Positions 2,724-27,765 of a stretch of 34,296 bases of DNA are shown piece by piece. Position numbers and translations under genes: made by a program. This DNA is from Nanobdellota archaeon (lineage in GTDB: Archaea > Nanobdellota > Nanobdellia > Pacearchaeales > GW2011-AR1), in the NCBI GenBank assembly GCA_018901625.1, contig JAHIEM010000078.1:1-34296 (forward strand), in the 5' to 3' direction. Numbering within the stretch: position 1 is the stretch's first letter; each line of letters starts with the position of its first letter. Below the pieces are notes generated by a model that made no database searches, was not told the DNA's origin, and was given only the letters and a program-made list of their open reading frames with translations.

Positions 2724-2773
2724 TTCATCACAATAATACTTAAATACAAAACAATTTGTTTTCAAGAAAGAAC

Positions 2774-4375
2774 ATGACAGACAAACAACCAATATACATA
2801 CTTCCTGAGAATGTTCAGAGAATGATAGGAAAAGACGCGCAGAGAAACAATATTCTAGCAGCAAAGATAGTTGCAGAGATAGTAAAAACCACTCTCGGCC
2901 CAAAAGGAATGGATAAAATGCTTGTAGATTCTTTAGGAGACATAATAGTTACTAATGACGGAGTCACAATTCTTGAAGAAATGGAAATAGAGCATCCTGC
3001 AGCAAAGATGATGGTTGAAATAGCCAAAACTCAGGAAGATGAGGTTGGTGACGGAACAACAACAGCAGTGATGCTGGCAGGCAAGCTGCTTGAAAATGCT
3101 GAAAAATTGCTTGACCAAAAAATACATCCTACTGTGATAACAAAAGGATATCGAATGGCAAGCGAGAAAGCCCAGGAAATTTTGCAAAATATTGCCACAA
3201 ACATATCTCCTGACGATGAAAAACTTTTAAGGCAGATTGCAATGACTGCAATGACAGGCAAGGGAGCAGAAACAGTAAAAGAAATATTTGCAGATATAAT
3301 TGTCAAAGCAGTCAAACAGATTCAGGAAAACAATAAAATTGATTTGACTAATATAAAAATAGAAAAAGCAAAAGGGAATGGGATAGAGCATACAGAACTT
3401 ATTTCAGGAATAGTTTTAGATAAAGAACGCGTCTCACTAGACATGCCTGCAAGTGTTTCAAATGCGCGAATTGCGCTCCTGGACATTGCTCTTGAAATCA
3501 AAGGTCCAGAAACAGAAGCAAAAATCCAGGTTACTAGCCCCGATCAATTGCAAAGCTTCATAGAACAAGAAGATAGAATGCTCAAGACAATGGTTCAGAA
3601 AATAAAAGTCTCTGGCGCAAATGTGATATTCTGCCAGAAAGGAATTGATGATGTTGCCCAGTACTATCTTGCTAAAGAAGGAATCTATGCGTGCAGACGA
3701 GTTGCAAAATCAGATATGGAAAAACTAGCCCGCGCAACAGGTGGAAAAATAATGAGCAACTTTAATGAAATCTCTCCAGAACAATTAGGAAACTCAGAAA
3801 TAGTAGAAGAAGTAAAACACGGAGATACAGCTATGACTTACGTACGAGGATGCAAAAATCCAAAAGCAGTTACAATCCTGATTAAGGGGGGAACATCTCA
3901 CGTAATTGACGAGATGGAACGGGCAATAAAAGATGGATTAGGAGATGTTGCTGCAAGTTTAAAAGATGGGAAAATTGTAGCAGGCGGGGGAGCAGTAGAA
4001 ATCGAGCTAAGCAAAGAACTCAGGAAATTCTCACAAAGTTTGGGGGGAAGAGAACAGCTGGCAATAGAACAATTTGCATCTGCCCTAGAGTTTATTCCAA
4101 CAACACTTGCTGAAAATGCAGGATTAGACCCAATAGACATTCTTACAGAGCTGAAAGCAAGACACGACCAGGGAGAAAGTCTTGCAGGATTAAACTTATT
4201 CACAAACAAGATTGAGAATAATATAGAAGCAGGAATTGTAGAGCCATTAAGAATAAAAACTCAGGCAATAAACAGCGCAAGTGAAGTTTCAATGATGATT
4301 TTAAGAATTGATGATGTTATTGCTTCTGGCTCAAAAAGCAAGCAAAACATGCCGCAGATGAATGAGTATGACTGA
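2774..4375 (+). CDS. ths: Thermosome subunit (group II chaperonin)
   Basis: [23 protein letters not shown] and VAGGGAVE motifs over the full ~530 aa. The first in-frame ATG is at 2774; the track start at 2756 is a TTG. Confidence 0.95.
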
Positions 4376-7823: not shown

Positions 7824-7917
7824 TCTCAATCGCATATGCGCCACCCAAAAAGCTTTGCTCTTTCTATCTTGAGTTACAAATTCTAAGAGCAAAGCTTTTT
7901 CCGGGAAGTTGAACCCA
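7824..7917 (-). repeat. Partial copy of tRNA-Gly 3' end (T-arm + acceptor strand + 3' flank) split by a palindromic insert
   Basis: 7824-7846 (ttctcaatcgcatatgcgccaccc) matches 7945-7968 of the real tRNA-Gly 3' end and flank. 7901-7916 (ccgggaagttgaaccc) matches 7967-7981 with a 1-nt insertion. A 54-nt insert separates the two parts. Confidence 0.7.
7847..7900. repeat. Perfect 14-bp inverted repeat with 26-nt loop (54-nt palindromic element; possible bidirectional terminator or MITE-like insert)
   Basis: aaaaagctttgctc (7847-7860) is the exact reverse complement of gagcaaagcttttt (7887-7900). A5/T5 runs at the stem base and CC on both sides. Confidence 0.8.
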
Positions 7918-7958: not shown

Positions 7959-8029
7959 TGCGCCACCCGGGAATTGAACCCGGTTCCCTTCCTTGGCAAG
8001 GAAGAATTCTACCGGTAAACTAGCAGCGC
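7959..8029 (-). tRNA. tRNA-Gly (anticodon GCC)
   Basis: Minus-strand read: GCGCTGC TA GTTT ACCGGTA GAAT T CTTCC TTGCCAA GGAAG GGAA CCGGG TTCAATT CCCGG GTGGCGC A. 71 nt, 7-bp acceptor with two G-U pairs, canonical T-loop, no encoded CCA. Confidence 0.85.
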
Positions 8030-8127: not shown

Positions 8128-8403
8128 TCATTCGTATCTTAGAGCATCAACGGGTCTCAGCCTAGAAGCCCTATAAGCTGGAATTGCTCCAAATATCAAA
8201 CCCACTCCCATAGAAAGCAAAAAGACTTCTATCATCAAAGGGATGCTGACATAAGCATTAGATAAAGAGAATCTCCCAATACCAGACCCACTAGCCAATT
8301 GACCAATAAATGCTGCTCCGAATACTCCTAAGATCAAGCCCATTACCCCCCCAATCAAGCCGATTACCCCCCCAATCAAGCCGATTACCCCCGCATTTAA
8401 CAA
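8128..8403 (-). pseudogene. C-terminal fragment of an FtsX/MacB-type ABC permease
   Basis: Ends with the family-typical C-terminus (FGAIPAYRASRLRPVDALRYE). Only ~90 codons are open and the track start is a TTG. No upstream continuation appears in any frame, and the fragment abuts the tRNA-Val island. Confidence 0.65.
8342..8392. repeat. 21-bp tandem repeat (about 2.4 units) inside the FtsX fragment
   Basis: attacccccccaatcaagccg occurs at 8342-8362 and 8363-8383, with a partial third unit. It encodes the duplicated GVIGLIG peptide. Confidence 0.85.
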
Positions 8404-8644: not shown

Positions 8645-8715
8645 GGGCTCATAAGCTAGCGGTAAACTGACTCGTTTACACCGAGTATTCCGAGGTTCAA
8701 CTCCTCGTGGGCCCA
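8645..8715 (+). tRNA. tRNA-Val (anticodon TAC)
   Basis: GGGCTCA TA AGCT AGCGGTA AACT G ACTCG TTTACAC CGAGT ATTC CGAGG TTCAACT CCTCG TGGGCCC A. 71 nt; acceptor, anticodon and T stems pair, with one C-A mismatch in the D stem. Confidence 0.8.
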
Positions 8716-8726
8716 TATTTACTAAA

Positions 8727-9299
8727 ATGGAAGAAAAGATATTAAAATTTATTAGAGAAAAATATGAAGAAGGCGATTTTAAGTATCATATTTCTGCTGT
8801 TGTAAAAAATGCTATGTTGTTAGCTAACAAATTAAAAGCTGACAAAGATGTTGTAGAAATGGCTGCTTATTTGCATGATATGGCAAGATCGCTTAATAGA
8901 GATGATGTTAAGGAGTTTGTAAATGAGAATGAACATCATATTGAAGGAGCAAAACAAAGTGAGATTTTTCTTAAAGAATTGGGCTATGATAAGGAGTTCA
9001 TTGAAAAAGTATCCCATTGTGTTCTTACTCATAGGGGTAGGGGTAATATAGAACCAAAAACAGTAGAAGCAAGGATTGTTGCTTGTGCTGACGCAATGGC
9101 TCATTTTGATACATTTTTAGATTTATTCGAAGTTTTTTTAAAAACAACAGACTCTTTTGAAGATGCAGTTATAAGAATAGAGAAAAAAATGCAAAGAAAT
9201 TGGGAGATTAAGTTAACATTGCCAGAAGCAAAAGAAATAGTAAAAGACAAATATGAAGCTATAATGTTATTAATTAAAAGTATGAAAGAATACATTTAA
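8727..9299 (+). CDS. HD-domain phosphohydrolase
   Basis: H...HD signature (AAYLHDMARS), HCVLTHRG and ACADAMAHFD motifs of the HD superfamily. Starts 11 nt after the tRNA-Val. Confidence 0.7.
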   Translation: MEEKILKFIREKYEEGDFKYHISAVVKNAMLLANKLKADKDVVEMAAYLHDMARSLNRDDVKEFVNENEHHIEGAKQSEIFLKELGYDKEFIEKVSHCVLTHRGRGNIEPKTVEARIVACADAMAHFDTFLDLFEVFLKTTDSFEDAVIRIEKKMQRNWEIKLTLPEAKEIVKDKYEAIMLLIKSMKEYI

Positions 9300-9330
9300 A
9301 TCATTAATCAAATTAACATTAATAATAAAT

Positions 9331-9419
9331 TGGGCTCAAAACAACTCGGTTGAACATAATCATCTCAAAAAGTAGTAGCTCGTTACAAAAGTTAACCTTT
9401 AGGAGCTTTTTGTTTACAC
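9331..9419 (+). repeat. tRNA-Val-derived module M2 (5' flank + acceptor-like GGGCTCA ... degenerate core ... hairpin motif ... GTTTACAC core)
   Basis: aataataaatTGGGCTCA mirrors the tRNA-Val 5' flank and acceptor (8631-8651). Internal GCTCGTTACAAAAG is a degenerate anticodon arm. The H-like motif aaaagttaacctttaggagct is at 9387-9407 and the core at 9412-9419. No T-arm follows. Confidence 0.7.
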
Positions 9420-9468
9420 CGAACCTAACAAAGTTCTTCCAAGAAAATTAAAAACATTTTAGAATAAT

Positions 9469-9843
9469 TTATTGGACAAGTTCATAAATTCCTTTTTCTA
9501 AAACATACATATCTAAAGGATTCGGAGCTACACCCCTTAATTGTTCAGCTGCTTCATCTCTTCCAGCAGACTTAAGAGCTTCGATAACATCTGGAGAATA
9601 TGCAAGTCTTGATTCTTTAGGAATGGGAAATGTTGCCCCTGTTTGTTCTTCAATTCTTTCTTTTGTAAAAATTGTTGGAATAACCAAACCCACCAATGAC
9701 TTTCTAACTTCTAAGGGTGTATCTTCGTCCGTGCTAATTTGAGTTACTTTAACTCTTTCCCATTTACCTCTGTAAAAAGTTCCAGGAATTCCATACATAG
9801 CCATCACTTCATCTGACCCATGAATTATTACAGTTCTTGCCAT
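9469..9843 (-). CDS. Hypothetical protein (124 aa)
   Basis: ATG-initiated ORF filling one inter-core interval. No recognisable motif. Confidence 0.5.
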   Translation of the reverse strand: MARTVIIHGSDEVMAMYGIPGTFYRGKWERVKVTQISTDEDTPLEVRKSLVGLVIPTIFTKERIEEQTGATFPIPKESRLAYSPDVIEALKSAGRDEAAEQLRGVAPNPLDMYVLEKGIYELVQ

Positions 9844-9950
9844 TTCAAATCAATAAAATATACCTTTTTAAGCATTTATATGCTAAAATTCAAATTAATT
9901 TCCTTATCATAAAAAGTGTTTAATAAAAAAAGAACAATAATGTTATACTT

Positions 9951-9996
9951 GTTTACACCGAGTATTCCGAGGTTCAACTCCTCGTGGGCCCATATT
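9951..9996 (+). repeat. Orphan tRNA-Val 3' half, type a (perfect 46-nt direct repeat of 8674-8719)
   Basis: gtttacaccgagtattccgaggttcaactcctcgtgggcccatatt is identical at both positions. It covers the tRNA from the last 5'-strand anticodon-stem base (G31) through the discriminator (A73), plus 4 nt of 3' flank. Confidence 0.9.
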
Positions 9997-10003
9997 AAAC
10001 AAT

Positions 10004-10116
10004 TGGGCTCAAAACTCAAGAAAAACAACATATCAAAAAGTGCTCTTTTTATTTGGATGCTTTATGATATATTAGTTTACACCGAGTAGTCCGCAGTTCG
10101 ATCCTGCGTGGGGCCA
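10004..10116 (+). repeat. Module M3 + orphan tRNA-like 3' half, type b
   Basis: TGGGCTCAAAACTC...ACATATCAAAAAG... leads to the core at 10075-10082. Then CGAG TAGTC CGCAG TTCGATC CTGCG TGGGGCC A: a good T-arm and a different acceptor strand. Confidence 0.75.
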
Positions 10117-10165
10117 TGCAAACTAAATCGGATAGTTTTAAATAATAAGGAGCATCATTCATCTT

Positions 10166-10462
10166 ATGGACTCCCTTCCACCCCCTATCTTAATTTCAAT
10201 ACTAGGATTAATAATAATTTTACTTGTAGTCTTCTTTGTGAAAGGCAAAAAGAAAGAAAAAATGAAAAATATAAATTTGGTTCAGTTTATTACAGGAATT
10301 TGTATTGCATTAATTGGGGCAGGAATAATGTTTCATGGAAACATCTTTGGAGAAAGGAACTCAGGTATTGCTACAGTTATTGGAATTATTGGTATAGGAT
10401 TGATAGCTACATCCTATAGACACAGATTACTAAAAAAACAAGTAGTTCGTTATAAAAGTTAA
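10166..10462 (+). CDS. Small integral membrane protein (98 aa)
   Basis: Three hydrophobic segments (ILISILGLIIILLVVFFV, ICIALIGAGIMF, ATVIGIIGIGLIA). Preferred over the overlapping 10108-10419 frame. Its 3' end runs into the repeat module. Confidence 0.55.
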   Translation: MDSLPPPILISILGLIIILLVVFFVKGKKKEKMKNINLVQFITGICIALIGAGIMFHGNIFGERNSGIATVIGIIGIGLIATSYRHRLLKKQVVRYKS

Positions 10463-10509
10463 CCTTTAGGAGCTATTTGTTTACACAAAGTATAACAAAA
10501 AGGATATAC
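10433..10509 (+). repeat. Composite site: degenerate core - hairpin motif H - GTTTACAC core - hairpin motif H
   Basis: TTCGTTATAAAAG, then aaaagttaacctttaggagct (10454-10474), then the core at 10479-10486, then aaagtataacaaaaaggatatac (10487-10509). The left half is near-identical to 9366-9419. Confidence 0.7.
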
Positions 10510-10512
10510 TTT

Positions 10513-10932
10513 CTAAATCTTATTTAGCTCTTCACTTATTTTTTCTTTTATTCTAATTAGTATATCCTCTGCAACTTTAAAATCTTTGTTATAAGGAGCA
10601 TAATTTTTACCCCACCTTTCATCTATAAAAGTGGTGCCAAACAATTCTCTTTTGTCCTTATATCTCGGGATAACATGAGTATGCAAGTGAGGGGTGACAT
10701 TTGCTAGAGTAGCGTAATTATAGAGATCAGGATTAAACAATTTCTTAAAAACTTTCTTCAGTTTTTTACCTATTTTAAAATACTCTTCTTTCTCTTCATC
10801 AGTCATATCAAAGAAGTCTAAAGCATCTTTTCTTTTAGCCCAGATGTAAACCTTTCCTAAATAACATTGGTTTTCATTTAGATAAACTTCCCAGTAATCA
10901 TATTCTTTTATTAACAATTTCTTGTAATCCAT
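10513..10932 (-). CDS. HIT-family nucleotide hydrolase/transferase
   Basis: Histidine triad HLHTHVIPR near the C-terminal third. 139 aa. Starts 1 nt after the stop codon of the NYN gene. Confidence 0.75.
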   Translation of the reverse strand: MDYKKLLIKEYDYWEVYLNENQCYLGKVYIWAKRKDALDFFDMTDEEKEEYFKIGKKLKKVFKKLFNPDLYNYATLANVTPHLHTHVIPRYKDKRELFGTTFIDERWGKNYAPYNKDFKVAEDILIRIKEKISEELNKI

Positions 10933-10933
10933 T

Positions 10934-11590
10934 TTATTTTAGACAATTCTCCATAATAACATTCTTACCTAAAACCATAAATTTAAAGTTTTCTCTTAAC
11001 TCTCTTGAATATCCTTTTGCAAGAGAGACACTAAAAACTTCTTTTTTATTATTTTGAGCAAGTTTCATTGCAGGAGTAAAATCCGCATCTCCTGAAAGAA
11101 CTATTAAAGTATCCGCTTTATTTTTAATAGCATATTCAACTAAATCAACAGCAATCATTATATCAACGCCCTTTTCTTTCTTCTTTACATTTCCAATTGT
11201 ATCTAATATGTTCTGTTCAACAATCGGCTTACAATTTTCACATAACTCCATAGAGTCAATAAGCTCTTGTTTTTCTTTTAATAATTCTTTAGTCGAATGA
11301 ACTTGCAGTTTTCTTGTATGAATCGTAAACTTTGGAATCTTTCTTAAATCATCTATAAACTTGAGATGAGAAAAGTATAATTCTTTTCCATCTTTTAAGG
11401 GGGGCATAGAATTGTAATACCTTGCTTCTTTTAATTCTACATCAAACTGTTTACAAATTAAGTCTACTAGCTTATGGAAGTCTAGATTAGAAGGCTTAAT
11501 CTTCATTTGTTTTAAGTTATGATATAGGTTATTACCATCAATAAAGATAATTGCTTCTTTCGCCATTTTAGAAAATATAAAACCCGGCAT
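10934..11590 (-). CDS. NYN/LabA-like (PIN-fold) domain protein, putative RNase
   Basis: IFIDGNNLYHNL, GVDIMIAVDL and VLSGDADFTPA motifs typical of NYN/DUF88. An alternative start (MAKEA...) lies at 11566. Confidence 0.7.
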   Translation of the reverse strand: MPGFIFSKMAKEAIIFIDGNNLYHNLKQMKIKPSNLDFHKLVDLICKQFDVELKEARYYNSMPPLKDGKELYFSHLKFIDDLRKIPKFTIHTRKLQVHSTKELLKEKQELIDSMELCENCKPIVEQNILDTIGNVKKKEKGVDIMIAVDLVEYAIKNKADTLIVLSGDADFTPAMKLAQNNKKEVFSVSLAKGYSRELRENFKFMVLGKNVIMENCLK

Positions 11591-11665
11591 TGTCCGAAGA
11601 CCATACCGGGGACTTAATAATTAATATAACCACGCAGAGTATTTAAGCTTTGCTTTTTGGCTCCA

Positions 11666-11742
11666 AAGAAAGTATATCCTTTAGGATATAATCGTTTACA
11701 CCGAGAAGATCACCGGTTCGATTCCGGTAGGGACCATATTTT
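11666..11742 (+). repeat. 77-nt perfect direct repeat, copy 1: hairpin H + core + orphan tRNA-like 3' half, type c
   Basis: aagaaagtatatcctttaggatataatcgtttacaccgagaagatcaccggttcgattccggtagggaccatatttt is identical to 15253-15329. It contains T-arm ACCGG TTCGATT CCGGT and acceptor strand AGGGACC A. An acceptor-like GGCTCCA sits upstream at 11659. Confidence 0.9.
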
Positions 11743-11830
11743 TTTTGAGATAGAAAGATTTAAAAGTAACTAATAAATAATATTTTAGAGGCGATGGTAA
11801 AGAATCGCCTTAGAATTCTAAAAAACAAAA

Positions 11831-12439
11831 ATGACAAAACAGGGATTAGATAAATTAACAATAAGTCAACCAATATGGCCTGGAAAAGAACTTCAAGTTC
11901 AACCAGGAGACTTATCAAAGTTTGCTCCTTATGGAAATGGTGTTTATGGTTATCAAAGAAGTTCACTTGAACCAATTAGAGGAGACCCCCCACAAGAGGA
12001 AACAGCAGGATTAATTTATTTTGGAAATAGAGTAAAAAGAGAGGATTTTGATGGATTCTTAAGAATGATGAATGTTAGAGCAGGAAACAAAGATTATGCT
12101 GCTTTTGTTCAAGAATCTGCTAATCCACTTGAAGATAGATATTTTAAACAAATGAGACTAATGTCTAAATTTGGTCTTAGATTCATGTTTGGAGCTATTG
12201 GTAATGGAGAATATGATTCATTTAAAGAACAGGATTTAACATTAGGAGAAGCATTATGGTCTTTTATGGATGCTGAAAAAGAAAGATTTGGAACTTCTTT
12301 TGGAGACCCAAGAATTGAAGGTAAGATGGGTGGGGATGGAGATTATGCTAGAGAAGAACTTAGTTTTGGATTCATGTTAGAAAATGAGTATCATCACATT
12401 TATCGTATTTGGAGCAGAGCTTGGCTAGTCACAAAGTAA
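11831..12439 (+). CDS. Hypothetical protein (202 aa)
   Basis: ATG-initiated ORF occupying one inter-core interval. No recognisable motif. Confidence 0.5.
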   Translation: MTKQGLDKLTISQPIWPGKELQVQPGDLSKFAPYGNGVYGYQRSSLEPIRGDPPQEETAGLIYFGNRVKREDFDGFLRMMNVRAGNKDYAAFVQESANPLEDRYFKQMRLMSKFGLRFMFGAIGNGEYDSFKEQDLTLGEALWSFMDAEKERFGTSFGDPRIEGKMGGDGDYAREELSFGFMLENEYHHIYRIWSRAWLVTK

Positions 12440-12448
12440 AATTTTATA

Positions 12449-12580
12449 TGGCCCAACCACATCAAAATATCAACAAATGGCCCAAAACTCGTGTAACAAA
12501 ACATATCATAAAAAATTCTATCTAAAATAAGAAGTAATTTGAGATATTCGTTTACACAAAGTATATCAAAAAGGATATAC
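12449..12580 (+). repeat. Module M5: decayed 3'-end remnant + acceptor-like GGCCCAAAACTC + core + hairpin H
   Basis: ATGGCCCAAC...AACAAATGGCCCAAAACTCG parallels 9985-10016 (GTGGGCCCA...AACAATTGGGCTCAAAACTC). ACATATCATAAAAA is shared with M2/M3. The core is at 12550-12557, followed by aaagtatatcaaaaaggatatac (12558-12580). Confidence 0.65.
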
Positions 12581-12631
12581 TATCTTAATTCAGCTTTGGA
12601 TATATTTGTTAATTGAAAAATATCTAAAAAA

Positions 12632-13312
12632 CTACTGATAGTGTTTTATCAAACTATCTAGGACAGTATATGCTTTTGTTGAATCTTTCTCATACAAAAC
12701 AAATATAACCTGTTTGTAAGTTGAAGCAATATCTATTATGTTTATTTCCTGCTCAGCAAGTTTTCCAGTAATAAAAGAAAGAAATCCTGGAATATCTTTA
12801 GAGTAAGAAGTTGATTCTCCTGCTTCTCTCAATGAAAGCAGTGTAAGCCCCTCCTTTTTTTCTAGGATACTTTTACCAAGCCCAGAAAATTTCTTCTCAT
12901 TTTTCTTATCAATTACAACGGTAATCTCTCCACTTCCCTGAACAAAGAACATTATGTCTCCCAAGTCCCATCTAATTGTCTTAGAAATCTTATTAATTAG
13001 ATTCATTACATTCTTTGTTCTTTCTAAAGTAAATGAAGAAATTTTATTTTTCATAATCAATTCGCAATCTTTCAAAAGCTCTCCACAGTCATTCTCACTT
13101 TTAGTTACTTTAATCTCATCATAGTATCTCTGGATAGCAATTAAAACCGAAGAAAAGTTAGCCTTCTTATTCTTGTGTTTTATCTTACTTAGAATCTCGC
13201 GAGTAAGAGCAGAATAATTAATCAATCCTTTCTTCAGAACTTCATTTAAGTAAAGATTGGAGCTTATTTCTTCTTTTACTAGTTCAGCAGTTGATTTATT
13301 CCCTACATTCAT
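12632..13312 (-). CDS. Hypothetical protein, possible small-molecule-responsive regulator
   Basis: 226-aa ORF divergent from the ATP-grasp gene across a 59-nt TATA-rich spacer. The N-terminal segment is HTH-like (weak). No firm motif. Confidence 0.4.
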   Translation of the reverse strand: MNVGNKSTAELVKEEISSNLYLNEVLKKGLINYSALTREILSKIKHKNKKANFSSVLIAIQRYYDEIKVTKSENDCGELLKDCELIMKNKISSFTLERTKNVMNLINKISKTIRWDLGDIMFFVQGSGEITVVIDKKNEKKFSGLGKSILEKKEGLTLLSLREAGESTSYSKDIPGFLSFITGKLAEQEINIIDIASTYKQVIFVLYEKDSTKAYTVLDSLIKHYQ

Positions 13313-13371
13313 TTTAGTTATGTATAATATTAGACATAAAGTATAAATATCTATAGTTTAAATACTTTTTC
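13313..13371. promoter_or_regulatory. Divergent promoter region
   Basis: 59-nt spacer containing two TATA-like boxes (agtataaatatc, gtttaaatac) about 20-35 nt from the two opposing ATGs. Confidence 0.4.
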
Positions 13372-14541
13372 ATGAAAAACATAAAACTTGAAAAAGCATT
13401 GAAAGAAACATTTAACAGCGCATATTTTTTCACAAAATATCCCGAACTAAAAAACAACAAAGATACAGGAAACCCTGTATTTCCGTTCGTAGAAAATGGA
13501 TATGACAGTCAGACAATAGTTTCAGAAACAATGCGATTTTTTCCAGTTGCAGCACTAACTGGGGGAAGTTTCTTCATGCCATCTCAAGCACCAATTGAAC
13601 AAGTAGAATCATGGCTAGACTTGGGTCTCCCAATACCTGATGTACAAATATATGACAATGATGATCCGCAGGATTATACCAAAAAAGTAAATGCTCTTGC
13701 TTCTAAATCACTGCATCTTCTACATCCATTCTCCAATTTTTCATCAGAAGTATGTGCAGTAAATCCACAATTGCTCTTAGAACTAAACACGAAAAGCAGT
13801 CTTCCAAACTTAACAGAACACACGCCTAAAAAGAAAAAAGCAACTCTTCAAGAAATGTTAGCAATGCAGCCTCCATTTGTTGTGAAAAAAACAACTGGCT
13901 CATCAGGAGATGGAGTTAAGATAATCAAACGCCCAAGCCAGTTATCTGAGTTAGAATCATTTCTAAATGGATCTGAATTTTTTGTAGAAGATTACATTGA
14001 CTATGTTCATAATCATAGTCTTCAGTTTTTTGTAGACTCTAAGGGGGAAATACACTACATAGGTTATGGAGAACAGAACACAACAGAAGAAGGAGAATAC
14101 CTCGGTCTTGTTTGTATGTTAAATAAAACCCCTGCAAAAGGATTACTAAACGTTGGAGAGAAAACCTGCGCTGAAATTGCTGCAAGAGGGTACAAGGGAT
14201 TTGTAGGGCTAGACATATTAGAAGATGACGAGGGAAAATATCACATAATTGATCCAAACATAAGATGTACTGCTGCAACTCCGGTTTACCTACTTCAAGA
14301 AATACTAGTTCCAATTCTAAGTGCATATATCTATGTGGGGTCTGGCAAAATGCAAGCAGAAAACCCTTCCAAAGTAATTGAAAATATAAAAAATGCAGGG
14401 GGCGTTATGCTCTCAATGTCTCATGGAATTCATGGGCAGTACAAGTTCTTTGGCATGTTTGGTGGATCTGATTGCAAAGAAGCATTGCAAAACTGGCAGA
14501 TATTTCAGCAACAATTAAAAACCGAGAATGAGATAAAATAG
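13372..14541 (+). CDS. ATP-grasp family ligase
   Basis: VVKKTTGSSGDGVKII (phosphate-binding loop region), FVEDYID, and GFVGLDILEDDEGKYHIIDPNIR (Mg/ATP site) fit the ATP-grasp fold. Confidence 0.7.
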   Translation: MKNIKLEKALKETFNSAYFFTKYPELKNNKDTGNPVFPFVENGYDSQTIVSETMRFFPVAALTGGSFFMPSQAPIEQVESWLDLGLPIPDVQIYDNDDPQDYTKKVNALASKSLHLLHPFSNFSSEVCAVNPQLLLELNTKSSLPNLTEHTPKKKKATLQEMLAMQPPFVVKKTTGSSGDGVKIIKRPSQLSELESFLNGSEFFVEDYIDYVHNHSLQFFVDSKGEIHYIGYGEQNTTEEGEYLGLVCMLNKTPAKGLLNVGEKTCAEIAARGYKGFVGLDILEDDEGKYHIIDPNIRCTAATPVYLLQEILVPILSAYIYVGSGKMQAENPSKVIENIKNAGGVMLSMSHGIHGQYKFFGMFGGSDCKEALQNWQIFQQQLKTENEIK

Positions 14542-14542
14542 A

Positions 14543-15271
14543 ATGTGCAGACTATTCGCAATATTATCTAAAGAAAAAACAGATGCTAAGTACTGGTTTT
14601 TTGATGCAGAAATCCCTTTTAAAGATTTTTCAGAGAAAATTATCAATGGTGGTCCGCATAATAGCGGATGGGGTGTTGGCTGGCTTGACAAAAAGTGGAA
14701 GATATTCAAAGAAGGTCAGGAAAGTGTGAATAAATATGATTTCAATAAAATCAGAGAAATAAACTCAAATCTTATACTAATTCATTTAAGGCATGCTTCA
14801 TCAGGAGATAATACCACAAAAAACGCCCACCCTTTCTTATACAAAAATTGGATATTTGAACATAATGGTGGTGTTGACAGAAAAGAACTAATAAATCATT
14901 TAAATACCAATCTAAAAAATCAATTAACTAGCGAGACTGACTCCGAGGTTTTCTTCTTTTTGATAATGCAAATATTAGAAGAAAGAGGAGATATTTTAAC
15001 TGCAATAAAAGAAACTGTTAGAATTATTAAGAAATATCCTTATCGTGCGCTTAATTTTATTTTGTCAGATGGAGAAAGTGTTTATGTCTTTAGAGATATA
15101 AGTCCTAAACATATGGACAAAAAGGAATACTATTGTTTGAATTATATAACAACCGAGGATGAGGTTATAATAAGTTCAGATCCTCTAACACACGATAAAT
15201 GGATCTCAGTAAACTTAAGAGAATTATTAGAAATAAACAAGGATTTGAAAATAAGAAAGTATATCCTTTAG
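14543..15271 (+). CDS. Class II (Ntn) glutamine amidotransferase-like protein
   Basis: Begins MCRLFAI (catalytic Cys2 after Met). HLRHASSG..NAHPF and the FEHNGG motif match YafJ/GATase-2-like proteins. Starts 1 nt after the ATP-grasp stop codon. Its last codons lie in the 77-nt repeat. Confidence 0.7.
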   Translation: MCRLFAILSKEKTDAKYWFFDAEIPFKDFSEKIINGGPHNSGWGVGWLDKKWKIFKEGQESVNKYDFNKIREINSNLILIHLRHASSGDNTTKNAHPFLYKNWIFEHNGGVDRKELINHLNTNLKNQLTSETDSEVFFFLIMQILEERGDILTAIKETVRIIKKYPYRALNFILSDGESVYVFRDISPKHMDKKEYYCLNYITTEDEVIISSDPLTHDKWISVNLRELLEINKDLKIRKYIL

Positions 15272-15329
15272 GATATAATCGTTTACACCGAGAAGATCAC
15301 CGGTTCGATTCCGGTAGGGACCATATTTT
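15253..15329 (+). repeat. 77-nt perfect direct repeat, copy 2 (H + core + tRNA-like 3' half, type c)
   Basis: Identical to 11666-11742. The core is at 15281-15288 and the 3' half ends at A 15323. Confidence 0.9.
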
Positions 15330-22980: not shown

Positions 22981-24135
22981 TCATGTTGAGGTTGTGGCTT
23001 CTGCTTTCATAGATGCTTCTTGCTGAACTAATTGTCCAGTATTGGAAGCTTTCTCCAGCGAGGCAAGTTCCTTGCCTCTAGCCAAGATATTTATTGCAGA
23101 ATTGTAATCTCTTGGAAGTTCTCCATTGCATTTCTCACAGCAAAATTGCCTTTGCCATAAGAATAGCTTTCTGTTTCTATGCCCGCAGAAATTACAATCC
23201 CTCGTAGTGTAAGCAGGGTCTACATCTTGAACTACACAACCAGCGTTTTCAGCCTTGTAGTGTAGATACATAGAGAGTTTGCCCCAGCTCGCATCTGCGA
23301 TATTTTTAGCATTATAAGAAATTCCTATTAGATTCTTTATATTCAGTTTTTCAATGGCAATAAATTTATTTTCTTTGATTAGCTTTGTTGATAATTTATG
23401 TATAAAATCATCTCTTGCATTTGCTATTCTTTCGTGAATTTTAGCAACTTTTATTCTTGCTTTTATTCTGCTATTGCTTCTTTTCTCTTTCTTTGATAAA
23501 GATTGCTGTGCAATTTTTAATTCTTGATGATAATTGTCAAAATGTTTTGGATTTTCATAAGCATTTCCATCGCTGTCATAAATATAATTTTCTATTCCAA
23601 CATCAATGCCAATCTCTCCAATTCCACAAACTCTTTTAATTACATTGTCAGTAACAACAGAAGCATACCATCTTCCAAGAGATTTCTTTATTGTAATGCT
23701 CTTTATGTTTCCTTCAACTTGCCTATGCAGTTTGATTGGAATCTCGCCAATTTTTGAAAGCCATAATATCCCTTTCTTTGCTTTCAAATGCGTGAGAGAA
23801 AATCCAGATTGATTGTAAGTGAAAGTCTTAAACCAATTTTTACCTTTGAATCTTAGTCTACCAACTTTATGCCCCTGCTTTTTTCGTTGTGAAAGTGATG
23901 ATAGATTGCCAAATAATCTTTGATTTTCCATCTGTAAAACTTTTGAATGAACATTATCCATTTGAGGATTTACAACTTTCAAATCTAATAAGAAATTTTG
24001 TATTTCGTTCTTTGTATATCCTTCATTCAGTTCGGCAAGAAGATAATTGTAAGTTTGTCTGCAAACTTCTTTAGCAATTTCTAACTTTTCTACTTCTGCT
24101 TTCTTTGGATACAATCTGAATTTATATGTTATCAT
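22981..24135 (-). CDS. tnpB: TnpB (IS605 OrfB-family RNA-guided nuclease)
   Basis: N-terminal YKFRLYPKK. RuvC-I IGIDVG, RuvC-II IAIEKL, zinc ribbon CNFCG...CEKCN, RuvC-III RDYNSAINI. Confidence 0.9.
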   Translation of the reverse strand: MITYKFRLYPKKAEVEKLEIAKEVCRQTYNYLLAELNEGYTKNEIQNFLLDLKVVNPQMDNVHSKVLQMENQRLFGNLSSLSQRKKQGHKVGRLRFKGKNWFKTFTYNQSGFSLTHLKAKKGILWLSKIGEIPIKLHRQVEGNIKSITIKKSLGRWYASVVTDNVIKRVCGIGEIGIDVGIENYIYDSDGNAYENPKHFDNYHQELKIAQQSLSKKEKRSNSRIKARIKVAKIHERIANARDDFIHKLSTKLIKENKFIAIEKLNIKNLIGISYNAKNIADASWGKLSMYLHYKAENAGCVVQDVDPAYTTRDCNFCGHRNRKLFLWQRQFCCEKCNGELPRDYNSAINILARGKELASLEKASNTGQLVQQEASMKAEATTST

Positions 24136-24411: not shown

Positions 24412-25221
24412 ATGAATCTTAAAAGAGGAATCGGCATAGTTTTAATCTTAATTTCAGGAGCAATAGGCTGGACAAATACAATTACTGGGGGAGTGATAGG
24501 AGTAAGCTCAAGCCCGGGTCTGAATATTCTGACAGTTTTAATCTTCATTGCCGGGATGATTCTAGTTCTGACTGAAAACTTAGAAGGGAGACTGCACTCA
24601 ATGATGACTTCTAAACAAAGAGAGAAATATGGGCAATTGTCAGAAGGCGAAAGAGAAGCATACCAAAAAAGCCTGAGAAGATATCAAGAAAGAAATATGA
24701 AAAGATTTGACAAATCTTACTATTCAAAGAGGGTCAAGGAGCTGCTTTCTCATGAAGGAGATGCTTGGATTGCTCTAGGAGAAGTTCCGGGAGTAGTTAA
24801 AGAATTGAATAAAAGAGGGTATATCGCTGAACACAGAGTAAACGAAGCAACACTCCACCTTTCAACAGGGGTATACAAAAGAAAAGAGGATGATTATGAG
24901 AATGGAAATGCAAATGTTCCTTACAGAAGGATACTTCACATAGAAATATCTGGAAGAGGCAAGAAAAAGGGGATAACAAAACACTTGCTCGTAAGCCGAG
25001 ATCCTTCAGATGAGAGAATAATAAATCAGGCAGGAATTGATGATTCTGGAGAGAGAATAAAAAGAATTCCATCAAAAGTTTATTCAATTGATGAACTAGG
25101 AAGTCCAGTCTATCCCGAGATAGGAATTCCGAAAACAGTTATTCTAGAAAAAGAATATGAAGAAGGAAGAAAGTCAGCTGCAAAGAAAAGATCTCGGAGA
25201 CAATACGCCAATCAAGTCTAG
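24412..25221 (+). CDS. Membrane-anchored hypothetical protein (269 aa)
   Basis: Two N-terminal TM segments, then a charged soluble region with a K/R-rich tail. Its 3' end overlaps the convergent rtcB-like gene by 48 nt. Confidence 0.5.
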   Translation: MNLKRGIGIVLILISGAIGWTNTITGGVIGVSSSPGLNILTVLIFIAGMILVLTENLEGRLHSMMTSKQREKYGQLSEGEREAYQKSLRRYQERNMKRFDKSYYSKRVKELLSHEGDAWIALGEVPGVVKELNKRGYIAEHRVNEATLHLSTGVYKRKEDDYENGNANVPYRRILHIEISGRGKKKGITKHLLVSRDPSDERIINQAGIDDSGERIKRIPSKVYSIDELGSPVYPEIGIPKTVILEKEYEEGRKSAAKKRSRRQYANQV

Positions 25222-26115
25222 ATATTGCCTGATAGCCGGATAAACTTCTTCAATTTTTCTATAGCAGTCTGGATGCTCAGATTGGATGTTTTTATCTCTA
25301 ATAAAACTCGGAATGAAAACTCTCTTTCTTAAATCAGTAAAATCAAAATCTCTGCTCTTAGCAGAGCTTCTTGAAATCTTTCTTCCAGTACCGTGGCACA
25401 TAGAATTCTCTAATTCAACAATCTGTGGTTTAGCTCTAACAATTAAAGCATCTCCGCCCATTGAAGAAGGAATCACAGTTATCTCACCAGGCAGTAATTT
25501 AATTGCGCCTTTTCTATAAGTTACTTGTTCATCATCTAATTCTACAGTATTATGAGGATGATTAGAAACAATCTCCATTCTGTTCTTAGCCATGCTCTGA
25601 ATAAGATCTAGAATATTTTTCCTGTTTTGTAACCCAAAACCAATAAGTCTATCATAAACCCCCATAAATCTCCCTCCAGAAACACCATGCGCATAAACCT
25701 GTCTTCCTAATTCCCCACTCCCGCTATGAACCAGAACAAGGTTATCCTCCGCTTGAAGACCTACCTCGCTATCTTCAGCAATCTTTACAGCTTCATAAAA
25801 AGTAATAAAATGATTCCCTCCACCAAGACTTCTAAGCTCAGAACTAGAAGATTTTAGTCTAGAAGCAGCATTATGAGTCAAATACTCTAAGCCTTCCAAA
25901 GGCCTTTCAAACTTAGCAAGTGTCATCCCACATCCAATATCCGGCCCAAGATAATCTGCCTGGACTTCATGACTCATTCTATCATAAACACCAACAACCC
26001 CCACAGGCAACCCTTCTCTTCCAGGCGAGTAATCAGGCAAGACTATCATTTTCAGTAATCCTTCTTTGCTTCCCCCAAATCTAAGCGGCTTGTCTGATAA
26101 ATTCATAAATTCCAT
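25174..26115 (-). CDS. rtcB: Miniature RtcB-family RNA ligase (about 313 aa)
   Basis: Ordered RtcB motifs: GPDIGCGM, LGGGNHFITF, VHSGSGELGRQV, HPHNTVE, YRKGA...VIPSSMGG, MCHGTGRKISR. The first ATG is at 26115; the track start at 26145 is a TTG. Confidence 0.8.
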   Translation of the reverse strand: MEFMNLSDKPLRFGGSKEGLLKMIVLPDYSPGREGLPVGVVGVYDRMSHEVQADYLGPDIGCGMTLAKFERPLEGLEYLTHNAASRLKSSSSELRSLGGGNHFITFYEAVKIAEDSEVGLQAEDNLVLVHSGSGELGRQVYAHGVSGGRFMGVYDRLIGFGLQNRKNILDLIQSMAKNRMEIVSNHPHNTVELDDEQVTYRKGAIKLLPGEITVIPSSMGGDALIVRAKPQIVELENSMCHGTGRKISRSSAKSRDFDFTDLRKRVFIPSFIRDKNIQSEHPDCYRKIEEVYPAIRQYLDLIGVLSPRSFLCS

Positions 26116-26116
26116 T

Positions 26117-26602
26117 TTATCTTGCTCCCCCCGACAGCTCTTCAAGCTGTTTTAAAAGTTGTGAAATCACTCCGCAAGTTGCTCCATTCTTAGGCACAGT
26201 GAATCTTCCTCTCCCGCCAAGTTTAATAACAAGTTCGTCAGGCTCAATCATTATAAAAATATTATGACTAGATTTTTGTTCAATTGCTAACTCAAGACAG
26301 CATTCAGTTACCGGAACTCTAGAACATACAAATAAATCTAACTGAGAAACATAACTCTTGCTATTAATAACTCTCTGGAACAATTCAGGAGACTGCAAAA
26401 CACCAACACCAGCAAAAAACCCGTATCTAACTAAAGAAGTTGGAGCAAAAGGAAATTGTATTGTTCTTTCATACAACGGGCTTGTTTCATCAATTCTCCT
26501 GTTAGTCTGCAGCACTTTTCTAGCAGGAACCCTATATCCCCAGTTATCAGCCCAGCTGACAATCTGCGCTTCTTCAGGTGTCATTATCTCGTTTTGGCTC
26601 AT
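26117..26602 (-). CDS. Hypothetical protein (161 aa) in the RtcB operon
   Basis: ATGA overlap with the upstream gene; its stop lies 1 nt before the rtcB ATG. No motif recognised and it is not archease-like. Confidence 0.55.
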   Translation of the reverse strand: MSQNEIMTPEEAQIVSWADNWGYRVPARKVLQTNRRIDETSPLYERTIQFPFAPTSLVRYGFFAGVGVLQSPELFQRVINSKSYVSQLDLFVCSRVPVTECCLELAIEQKSSHNIFIMIEPDELVIKLGGRGRFTVPKNGATCGVISQLLKQLEELSGGAR

Positions 26603-27765
26603 TTTCCCACCTCAGCAAGTTCGGCTGGTTTTTCTTGTTTCTCAACTTTAAAACCCTTAACATATTTCACTTCTCTATTAAACTCTCTTTTAAAGTCATC
26701 AAAAGCAGGCAAGTTACCACCATGCCCCGCAATAAAATCATACAACTCCCTAACAGCTGTTGCAAGAGATAAACTTGCTCCAGAATATCCTGAATTATCA
26801 ACAGCTTCCTGCCTCTTGTTTCTGTAATTGACTGCTAAAACTTGAGCGTAATCCCTAACAAACTCTTCAAGTTCTGCTTCTGGAATCTGAGATGCTATTT
26901 TTTTATAGGAGTCTAGCTCTTCTTTAGGAATGTCTCCTCTGCCCCCCGAGCATAATTGAATAGGATGCCACTCGAAGAATTCTCCATTTACAAGAAAGTC
27001 AATTCCACCCTTTTTGATTCCCCTGTCTCTAATTTGGCAACTAATCCCATCTCTAGCAACATAATTGGGAACATATTTTTCTAGCAATAGGGCAACAGCC
27101 CCTTCTTGCTGTGAAAATGCATAAAATCTACTCTCCACATAATAAGAATTTAGTTTAGTCTTCTCCATTTTCTTCAATCCGCCTACTAGTCCTCCTCTGC
27201 GAGCATTGTATCTCTTATTTGGATTATTAAATAGCGTTCTAGATATTTTTAGTTTAGTTTCTTCTGAAAGATGTTTTCCATCCCAGGGAGATTTGCCAAT
27301 CATGCCATGTCTTATCGCTTTTCTATGCTCTTCTGAAAGAAATCTTCCATAATTAGGATGATTATGCCCTGATAATGCTTCAGATATCTTTCTTCTAGTT
27401 TCATCTGAAAGAACTTTTCCTTTCAAAGCCTTGCTAAGAGCTACCCTATGCTGCTGCGAGAGACTCTTTCCAGTTCTAGATTCAGAATTATTCCTTCTTG
27501 GAATTTTCATTTTTCTCATCAAGTATCTAACACTCCCTGCTTCAACACCTATATCTTCTGCTAACTCGGCAATATTTTTTCCATTAAACTGATGTTCATA
27601 AAGTAAATAAGCAGAAAAACTAGGTGCTACCCCCTTATCAATAATACTTTTTTCAAATTCCAAGTATTTTCCATACTGTGTCTTTCTACGTCCCTCGCTT
27701 GCAACTTCCTGCAAACTCCGAATATCTAAATCCTGAATATCCATTATATCAGTTAATTGTGTCAT
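26599..27765 (-). CDS. HTH + 4x NUMOD3 repeat + C-terminal nuclease-like domain protein
   Basis: HTH-like NGKNIAELAEDIGVEAGSVRYLMRKM. NUMOD3-type repeats GKSLSQQHRVALSKALKGK, LSDETRRKISEALSG, LSEEHRKAIRHGMIGK, GKHLSEETKLKISRTL. C-terminal GGIDFLVNGEFFEWHP resembles a PD-(D/E)xK / DUF559-type core. Confidence 0.6.
   Translation of the reverse strand: MTQLTDIMDIQDLDIRSLQEVASEGRRKTQYGKYLEFEKSIIDKGVAPSFSAYLLYEHQFNGKNIAELAEDIGVEAGSVRYLMRKMKIPRRNNSESRTGKSLSQQHRVALSKALKGKVLSDETRRKISEALSGHNHPNYGRFLSEEHRKAIRHGMIGKSPWDGKHLSEETKLKISRTLFNNPNKRYNARRGGLVGGLKKMEKTKLNSYYVESRFYAFSQQEGAVALLLEKYVPNYVARDGISCQIRDRGIKKGGIDFLVNGEFFEWHPIQLCSGGRGDIPKEELDSYKKIASQIPEAELEEFVRDYAQVLAVNYRNKRQEAVDNSGYSGASLSLATAVRELYDFIAGHGGNLPAFDDFKREFNREVKYVKGFKVEKQEKPAELAEVGK

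Follow-up and report, generated by a model that had tools for sequence, protein, structure and literature searches.

Segments E1 and E2 of an archaeal contig belong to a widespread family of small cassettes in DPANN archaea that carry no recombinase gene. Both lie on contig JAHIEM010000078.1 of the Nanobdellota archaeon assembly GCA_018901625.1 (positions 1 to 34,296 of the forward strand; these 34,296 nucleotides are referred to here as the window), in a seven-segment array (A, B, C, D, E1, F, and E2; bases 8645-15329) that is anchored by a tRNA-Val gene and in which a copy of the anticodon loop of that tRNA bounds each segment. Judging from the layout of these sites, we put a probability of about 0.6 on movement of the cassettes by site-specific recombination with the loop as crossover, probably catalyzed by a tyrosine recombinase supplied in trans. 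The genomes of DPANN archaea are very small, and how accessory genes are acquired by these organisms and exchanged among them is poorly understood. The initial annotation of the stretch had argued that E1 and E2 represent a defined family of mobile cassettes rather than a random duplication, and this was borne out, with the same ends around unrelated cargo at 42 further loci and one cassette recurring in several neighborhoods. What it had not recognized was that the core sequence at these ends is the tRNA-Val anticodon loop, that the array comprises seven segments with X, Y, and tRNA-half ends, and that the long repeat behind both segments is composite.

A segmented array behind tRNA-Val

The eight-nucleotide core, GTTTACAC, occurs eight times in the window and on the plus strand only, where 0.41 occurrences are expected and none of 100 shuffles attained eight. 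It consists of base 31 and the seven-base anticodon loop (bases 32-38) of an intact tRNA-Val(UAC) gene (8645-8716, +; Rfam tRNA, 55.5 bits; ARAGORN anticodon tac), so that core 1 (8674-8681, +; motif count) lies within a functional tRNA. Seven further copies of the loop sequence lie downstream of this gene. Four of the array junctions bear displaced tRNA-Val 3' halves of three sequence types, which begin at the cores at 9951 (type a), 10075 (type b), 11694 (type c), and 15281 (type c), and for types b and c the window contains no corresponding 5' half. An Rfam scan in and around the array returned tRNAs only.

E1 begins with GTTTACAC followed by AAAGTATAACAAAAAGGATATAC (10479-10509, +) and ends with AAAGTATATCCTTTAGGATATAATC followed by GTTTACAC (11669-11701, +). 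E2 begins with GTTTACAC followed by AAAGTATATCAAAAAGGATATAC (12550-12580, +), and its right end (15256-15288, +) is identical to that of E1. These termini had been placed in the initial annotation, and all of their coordinates and sequences check out. The ends proper, H-left and H-right, occupy 10487-10514 (+; AAAGTATAACAAAAAGGATATACTTTCT, which fits the consensus of 21 non-redundant H-left sites) and 11666-11693 (+; AAGAAAGTATATCCTTTAGGATATAATC, which contains the 22-nt block AAAGTATATCCTTTAGGATATA) in E1, and 12558-12585 (+; AAAGTATATCAAAAAGGATATACTATCT) and 15253-15280 (+) in E2. The perfect 77-nt direct repeat reported earlier (11666-11742 = 15253-15329) is indeed 100% identical, and is made up of 28 nt of cassette end and 49 nt comprising the core, a displaced tRNA 3' half, and a trailer.

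A search for the H palindrome, GTATATC-N5-GGATATA with at most two mismatches, gave nine strand-matches in the window versus 0.26 expected, namely the four H sites on both strands and one unrelated site. The latter (337-355; GTATATATTGCAGGATATA, one mismatch) has no core beside it and lies upstream of a gene for a MazE/PhoU-domain protein (431-1402). The concern that H might be a scattered motif with no link to the core applies to this one exception; four of the five H-like sites in the window, and all copies at related loci, adjoin a core or variant core. Each H end is palindromic, as had been described, and this description can be refined. In the family consensus, the left end agrees with the reverse complement of the right end at 26 of 31 positions and with the right end read directly at 21 of 31, and the corresponding figures for E2 are 24 and 21 of 30. 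Because the left end matches the reverse complement better, the ends of E1 and E2 are best described as imperfect terminal inverted repeats of ~28 bp with an 8-nt direct repeat at their flanks.

The cargo that had been assigned to the two segments was supported by Pfam. E1 encodes a HIT-family protein (10513-10932, -; Pfam HIT, 1.6e-9) and an NYN-domain nuclease (10934-11590, -; Pfam NYN, 3.9e-19; PADLOC candidate HEC-09, 6.5e-15). A GC-rich hairpin (AAACCCGGCATTGTCCGAAGACCATACCGGGG; window 11572-11610) upstream of the NYN gene is kept in an E1-like cassette of a related locus (L089, about 900-950), and may be an element of the 5' untranslated region. E2 encodes a regulator, identified as an ACT-domain protein (12632-13312, -; Pfam), an ATP-grasp ligase of LdmS-like type (13372-14541, +; Pfam and NCBIfam), and an EgtC-like class-II glutamine amidotransferase (14543-15271, +; Pfam and NCBIfam). 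The stop codon of the amidotransferase (TAG) falls within H-right. In a near-identical contig (JAHIHY010000108.1; L125, 900-925), two substitutions in H-right (GTATATCTTTTATGATATA) abolish this stop.

The remaining segments have ends of other types. Segment A (8717-9411, +) carries a gene for an HD-domain phosphohydrolase (8727-9299; Pfam HD, 2.7e-15) and is closed by an X-type right-end site (9367-9411, +) that was aligned with 19 other X sites; core 2, a further copy of GTTTACAC, follows at 9412-9419 (+). Segment B (9420-9950, +) has a 124-amino acid open reading frame (ORF; 9469-9843, -) as its cargo. Its left end, CGAACCTAACAAAGTTCTTCCAAGAAAATTAA, is seen again in L082 and L102, and its right end, of the Y type and terminating in AATAATGTTATACTT, in L086, L096, and L115. 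Core 3 and the type a 3' half (9951-9992, +) are 98% identical to 8670-8719. ARAGORN called a second tRNA-Val at 9916-9992, which we rejected as a 3' half behind AT-rich sequence with no Rfam call, a typical false positive from a displaced tRNA fragment.

Segment C spans 124 nt from core to core, and its remainder (9993-10074, +) is a spacer and a degenerate X site, an "empty cassette" without an ORF. Core 4 with the orphan type b 3' half (10075-10116, +) leads into the remainder of segment D (10117-10478, +), which encodes a 98-amino acid membrane protein (10166-10462) and is closed by an X site (10434-10478, +). Core 5 (10479-10486, +) is the left boundary of E1. Behind E1, core 6 and the orphan type c 3' half (11694-11736, +) are followed by the remainder of segment F (11737-12549, +), with a gene for a 202-amino acid protein of no assigned function (11831-12439) and a degenerate closing X site (about 12520-12549, +). 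Core 7 (12550-12557, +) is the left boundary of E2, and core 8 with a type c 3' half and trailer (15281-15329, +) forms the distal end of the array.

Related cassettes in other genomes

The initial annotation had suggested looking in genomes and metagenomes for the H motif beside the core, and this search was productive, with 24 contigs and 18 loci found. A scan of metagenomes with GTATATC-N5-GGATATA-N3-GTTTACAC, which has 22 specified bases, yielded the 24 contigs, every one of them genuine. In these, H-right and the core are followed by tRNA-Val 3' halves (intact to badly decayed), by H-left, or by other recurrent left ends, including the one with which segment B starts. Other junctions of the same contigs revealed the second right-end type, X, which reads TCGTTAnAAAAGGTTACCTTTAGGATAyATTn followed by the core. 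X and H-right align base for base in the common pattern AAAG-N5-CCTTTAGGA-N7-core, and this generalized pattern, run on species-representative genomes, gave 18 loci in 14 genomes, labeled exclusively as Pacearchaeota, Woesearchaeota, or Nanoarchaeota.

After removal of duplicate loci there were 30 non-redundant H-right sites (AAAGTATATCCTTTAGGATATA, nearly invariant), 20 X sites (TcGTTAnAAAAGgTtACCTTTAGGATayATTt and core), 21 H-left sites (core and AAAGTATATCAAAAAGGATATACTTTCTaAA), and 41 tRNA 3' halves, intact to decayed. The census covered ~210 kb and placed 92 sites on the array strand; the opposite strand held three copies of GTTTACAC, with ~4 per strand expected by chance. Fifty-four cassettes with both ends measured 113-3767 nt (median 942) and contained one ORF in most cases, in mixed orientation (44 plus, 27 minus). 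Eleven "empty" units of 113-128 nt in related loci are made up of a 3' half and an X site with a conserved spacer between them. A reverse-strand open frame, read by eye, crosses X, core, and 3' half. In 13 cases H-right precedes the next core downstream of an H-left. The array cargo is mainly of toxin-antitoxin and defense type, including AbiE, MNT/HEPN, Fic, HicAB, PIN, PemK, NYN, and AAA_14-DUF4143, and the remainder comprises methyltransferases and assorted enzymes. When a similar array was sought at the tRNA-His gene of L165, no repeated loop and no H motif were found.

Where sites were located through their flanks, the core was sometimes TTTTACAC or ATTTACAC, in one site TTTTCCAC, and in the tRNA of L089 CTTTACAC. 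The 3-nt linker between H-right and core is free to vary (ATC, TTT, TTC, TTA, CTT, CTC), and base 31 changes with the left flank, G31 being usual, with TTTACAC retained. A constant 7-mer amid varying linkers and decaying halves is what would be expected if recombining partners need an identical overlap region. X or H-right meets H-left at 11 junctions, which have the uniformly spaced form GGATAyATTn-GTTTACAC-AAAGTATATC; the arms are inverted, 10-11 bp long, and placed around a spacer of 7-8 bp that corresponds to the loop. The arm blocks GGATATA and TATATC of H-right and H-left stand 15 nt apart. The block of identity shared by the sites is in other words the 7-bp anticodon loop, set between dyad-symmetric arms. 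The right arm of the H site, AAAGTATATC, resembles the sequence CGAGTATTCC behind the loop in the tRNA, which suggests that it may be a derivative of the tRNA site.

Some cassettes lie directly between the halves of tRNA-Val. The 5' half is immediately followed by the core and H-left in L113, L114, and L121, and by the core and a different left end in L108. A mini-unit of 114 nt, consisting of core, H-left, ~60 nt, a tRNA-Val 5' half, and the next core, is present in L113 (4196-4318), L114 (4994-5115), L121 (6033-6154), and L089 (1150-1265), and brings back an intact tRNA-Val gene in L121 and L089. It carries the 5' half, not the 3' half, probably together with a promoter. The array of the window has both an intact tRNA, as would be regenerated by integration, and displaced tRNA fragments that start at the proposed crossover.

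Evidence for movement of cassettes as units comes from one encoding AbiEii and AbiEi, which is 87-90% identical at the nucleotide level over 1.4 kb in L102, L105, L108, and L114. Homology starts at most 2 nt from the left core. On its left, the cassette is preceded by an X end in L105, by a Y end in both L102 and L108, and by the 5' half of a tRNA in L114; its right neighbors differ too. The AbiE toxin has more than 1000 protein homologs and ~58 clusters at no less than 79% identity, among which the only taxa named are Pacearchaeota, Nanoarchaeota, or unclassified archaeon; one weaker match is labeled bacterial and lies on a contig common to it and P0057. The interiors of H cassettes are mosaic, as the third gene beside AbiE varies by locus with a breakpoint at which there is no core. 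Similarly, an E1-like NYN cassette in L089 (78% nucleotide identity) retains H-right and the core and has a different 3' half and right neighbor.

The AbiE module and homologs of the segment F protein were also seen at places without cores. Homologs 82% identical to the F protein (L158-L164) are found in a core-gene context, next to genes for a 625-amino acid NTP_transf protein, YdjM, and L35Ae with no cores around, and more distant homologs occur in bacteria of the candidate phyla radiation. The F gene looks as if it had been either captured into a cassette or released from one.

Proposed recombination and its alternatives

In the mechanism that we favor, the anticodon loop TTTACAC would be the 7-bp strand-exchange (overlap) region for a recombinase whose gene would be located at another genomic site or on a helper element. 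The left binding arm would be GGATAyATTn at H-right and X ends, or the 5' stem of the tRNA, and the right binding arm would be AAAGTATATC at H-left, or CGAGTATTCC in the tRNA 3' half; in arm-core-arm form the site would read GGATATATTT-GTTTACAC-AAAGTATATC. When free, a cassette would be circular and have one site, composed of right end, core, and left end, which for E1 and E2 would be an H-core-H site with the predicted junction GGATATAATCGTTTACACAAAGTATA(A/T)C. Such a circle could enter any core, whether in an array or in the tRNA gene, and excision by the reverse reaction, presumably still active today, would leave the predicted empty sites GGAGCTATTTGTTTACACCGAGAAGATC after loss of E1 and GAGATATTCGTTTACACCGAGAAGATC after loss of E2. 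Cassettes with a tRNA 3' half would regenerate the tRNA on entering the gene. H cassettes would be unable to do so, and those in the window are located at secondary cores. The uniform orientation of the arrays would follow because the 7-mer loop is asymmetric. In archaeal and bacterial tyrosine integrases, the anticodon loop and its palindromic stem mirror the layout of an overlap with its core sites, and the SSV1 integrase cleaves at the borders of the loop (PMC8371274).

The initial annotation had likewise predicted an H-core-H junction from circularization and an attP-like site with inverted arms around an 8-nt core. H-core-H junctions do exist, in L085 and L111, where they are chromosomal junctions of adjacent H cassettes and not a demonstrated circle. 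The fixed-spacing junction described above fits an attP-like site, which we infer from sequence, neither a recombinase nor an excised circle having been found.

Several results weigh against recombination at the loop. By Pfam, no recombinase was found among the ORFs of the 34-kb window, among 149 ORFs of 37 related loci, in the lists for ten 10-20-kb contexts, or in the cargo of ten H cassettes, and phmmer and jackhmmer searches of 623 stop-to-stop ORFs gave no match to an Escherichia coli XerD query; this screening covered about 0.4 Mb in total. Circular contigs or terminal overlaps were sought among short metagenome contigs and none was found, nor was an excised circle or an empty site. Exact-protein look-ups revealed no strain lacking E1 or E2; the contigs retrieved either had the arrangement of the window or were interrupted at the repeats. 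Three scans of viral contigs (H-right with core, core with H-left, and X with core) gave chance matches only, without extended similarity, and thus no helper element. An intact tRNA-Val is missing within 10 kb of some arrays, as in L151, whose contig of 480 kb exists in a second assembly of 565 kb. Inverted terminal repeats with an 8-nt flanking repeat are a signature of transposons as well.

The same side of the balance holds a comparison of two strains. In the relatives with the 82%-identical F protein, a homolog of the 606-amino acid gene of the window is arranged head to head with tRNA-Val, and the island 3' of tRNA-Val differs between strains that are 99% identical elsewhere (L158 and L160). 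Their tRNA-Val genes (about 3700-3990) differ in both halves, with compensatory changes, and divergence begins ~25 nt upstream of the gene, so a crossover in the loop alone leaves the difference in two halves unexplained. In L160, a displaced 3' half lies 1.5 kb downstream behind a Fic gene and is identical to the tRNA 3' half of the other strain, as integration at the loop would be expected to produce.

The absence of a linked recombinase could also be read as decay. In that case, integrase-bearing viruses or plasmids would have integrated serially at tRNA-Val and decayed, the cassettes would be immobile, and H would be, for example, a terminator, a promoter, or a regulator site. Many 3' halves are decayed, some homologous cargo (AbiE and the F protein) occurs at core-free places, and genes terminate at or inside H ends, all of which would suit a fossil array. 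We nevertheless consider it unlikely, as H-left and H-right are almost invariant across genomes around cargo that is unrelated or 78-90% identical, and as a core or variant core lies beside each of the window's four strong H matches and beside all H copies at related loci (the weaker match at 337-355 has none). Loci picked by protein rather than by motif contained no stray H copies. That 54 of 54 cassettes are without an integrase at a median of 0.9 kb is unlike the product of random decay, and two repeats within the window, the perfect one of 77 nt and one of 50 nt that is 98% identical, point to recent events.

Somewhat less probable again is that the H cassettes are non-autonomous, cargo-bearing transposons akin to miniature inverted-repeat transposable elements (MITEs), mobilized by a transposase in trans with an 8-bp target duplication and an extreme preference for GTTTACAC. 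Their imperfect inverted ends of ~28 bp (26/31 in the consensus) and flanking 8-nt direct repeats are as this would require, and genes for DDE (IS66-type) transposases and TnpB are present in these genomes. The same 8-mer, however, also bounds cassettes that have no inverted ends, being flanked inside by a tRNA half at the left and by X or Y at the right, and belongs to the tRNA itself. Base 31 of the supposed duplication tracks the left flank and the 7-mer is constant, which is a better fit to an overlap region; moreover, insertion occurs in a single orientation relative to the core, and no transposase is associated with the cassettes.

Single-stranded movement by a HUH (Y1) transposase like that of IS200/IS605 would use the H hairpins as subterminal structures and insert 3' of a target containing TTAC. 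TTAC is the target of IS608. It is included in the core, both H ends are capable of forming hairpins with AAAG before each, H-right lies 11 nt before the end of the core, and there is a TnpB gene in the window (22981-24135). We regard this route as improbable, since TnpA was detected in no locus (149 related ORFs by Pfam, and the set used for the XerD-type screen), the hairpin loops are conserved in sequence with no visible covariation, cassettes without hairpins share the core, and peel-and-paste transposition does not yield displaced tRNA halves of differing sequence.

Finally, H elements could be the spacers of a split tRNA-Val gene or giant introns within it, with H-left and H-right pairing in RNA and so juxtaposing the two halves for the splicing endonuclease, as in the split tRNAs of Nanoarchaeum. 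This idea could draw on the tRNA-Val 5' halves followed by the core and a left end (L113, L114, L121, and L108), on the complementarity of H-left to H-right, on the intron-bearing tRNAs of these archaea, and on the RtcB ligase gene in the window, but is very improbable and was rejected after folding, as the L113 halves gave no bulge-helix-bulge (two of four pairs in the central helix), core-adjacent linkers show no covariation between ends, the tRNA of the window is intact with E1 and E2 between non-tRNA sequence and orphan 3' halves without 5' partners, and a degenerate 3' half follows the L114 cassette. A split integrase of the SSV type, int(N)/int(C), was also rejected, as there are no integrase fragments at any cassette end. 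In the related archaea, tRNA genes have inserts of ~25-64 nt at the anticodon loop (L107, 3040-3154 and 7623-7757; L082, 3265-3361 and 7373-7482), and ordinary tRNA introns are common in this lineage.

Comparison with known systems and neighboring features

The arrays resemble the islands and proviruses that integrate at tRNA anticodon loops (Williams 2002 classes; SSV1 integrase) in the 7-nt loop crossover, the symmetric flanks, the regenerated intact tRNA, the displaced 3' halves, and the tandem arrays that arise from repeated integration. Unlike such elements, the cassettes encode no integrase, measure 0.1-3.8 kb, and usually hold a single gene; many H units have no tRNA half and possess dedicated 28-bp inverted ends instead, and some units carry a 5' half.

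With integrons, including those of archaea (Ghaly et al. 2022, PMC9668308, a paper in which tRNA is nowhere mentioned), they share one-directional arrays of small, mostly one-gene cassettes, a conserved and partly palindromic cassette end with a short invariant core, and cargo rich in toxin-antitoxin and defense genes. Cassette size (median 942 nt) and gene number also fit, and arrays without a linked integrase are known among integrons as clusters of attC sites lacking integron integrases (CALINs). The core here, in contrast, is TTTACAC and not GTTRRRY, and an inverse core is absent; the ends show conservation of sequence as well as of structure; a tRNA gene, rather than attI next to intI, anchors the array; and genes lie in both orientations. 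No intI was detected beside the array (window, 149 related ORFs, and the XerD phmmer and jackhmmer searches). An attC site was not recognized either, as the core-like upstream element CGTTACAAA is a direct and not an inverted copy and there is no RYYYAAC partner.

Integrative mobile elements exploiting Xer (IMEX), which reside at dif and use XerCD, and cis-mobilizable elements (CIMEs), which are flanked by att sites and have no recombination module, are integrase-less and borrow a recombinase. The cassettes are like them in their recombination-site flanks, the missing recombinase, and the tandem pile-up. An exact 11-nt match, GGATATAATCG, links H-right and its linker to the dif site of Pyrococcus abyssi (ATTGGATATAATCGGCCTTATATCTAAA), whose other arm is similar to H-left. 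The site here is, however, a tRNA anticodon loop rather than dif with its 11-6-11 layout; because the arm blocks stand 15 nt apart rather than 8, the host XerA is a lead for the enzyme and not a conclusion. MITEs and other elements derived from insertion sequences also have inverted ends of ~28 bp, an 8-nt flanking repeat, and no transposase, but in our case the flanking repeat is fixed and common to the tRNA and to cassettes lacking terminal inverted repeats, orientation is uniform, and the cargo consists of genes. Membership of the IS200/IS605 group or of palindrome-associated transposable elements is contradicted by the absence of TnpA, by hairpins confined to H-type cassettes, and by a core at both ends.

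The system works like anticodon-loop tRNA integration, is organized like an integron, and is free of a recombinase like IMEX and CIMEs, and is a full member of none of these. No description of a DPANN cassette system, nor of the motif strings, was present in the literature searched, and a review of archaeal tyrosine recombinases (PMC8371274) leaves DPANN unmentioned. There is a fair chance that the arrays represent an undescribed cassette platform of DPANN archaea. We rate as about evenly balanced the fuller proposal of an integron-like platform, in which the tRNA-Val loop would be the universal crossover, 28-bp H ends or mimics of tRNA halves would be the cassette sites, and one recombinase in trans would shuffle hundreds of small, toxin-antitoxin- and defense-rich cassettes within and between genomes. 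If true, this would be a major route of accessory-gene flux in DPANN archaea and a second, independent invention of the integron principle. The arm-TTTACAC-arm site is a concrete, testable substrate for a recombinase hunt, and such short, well-defined sites could possibly be useful as recombination tools. Cassettes directly between tRNA-Val halves also bear on the old idea that loop-targeting mobile elements fragment archaeal tRNA genes.

Elsewhere in the window, whose GC content of about 35% and thermosome gene (2756-4375) mark the host as archaeal, and a near-identical contig of which was found in a metagenome-assembled genome labeled "Nanoarchaeota" (GCA_018899435.1), several further features are present. 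A 14-nt direct repeat, CATATGCGCCACCC (7837-7850 and 7959-7972), is the reverse complement of the 3' end of a tRNA-Gly(GCC) gene (7959-8029, -). The displaced fragment lies ~120 nt from its gene, and tRNA-Gly may be a second attachment site. Just upstream of tRNA-Val, three tandem 21-nt repeats (8318-8400) lie within a small membrane-protein ORF (8128-8403, -). The TnpB gene (22981-24135, -) encodes OrfB_IS605 and a Cas12f-like TNB domain and has CCATAACCTAAC on both flanks, with no TnpA in the window. The RtcB tRNA-splicing ligase appears to be split across consecutive ORFs (25174-27765, -), and a NUMOD3 motif in one ORF of this region (26599-27765) suggests insertion of an intein or homing endonuclease.

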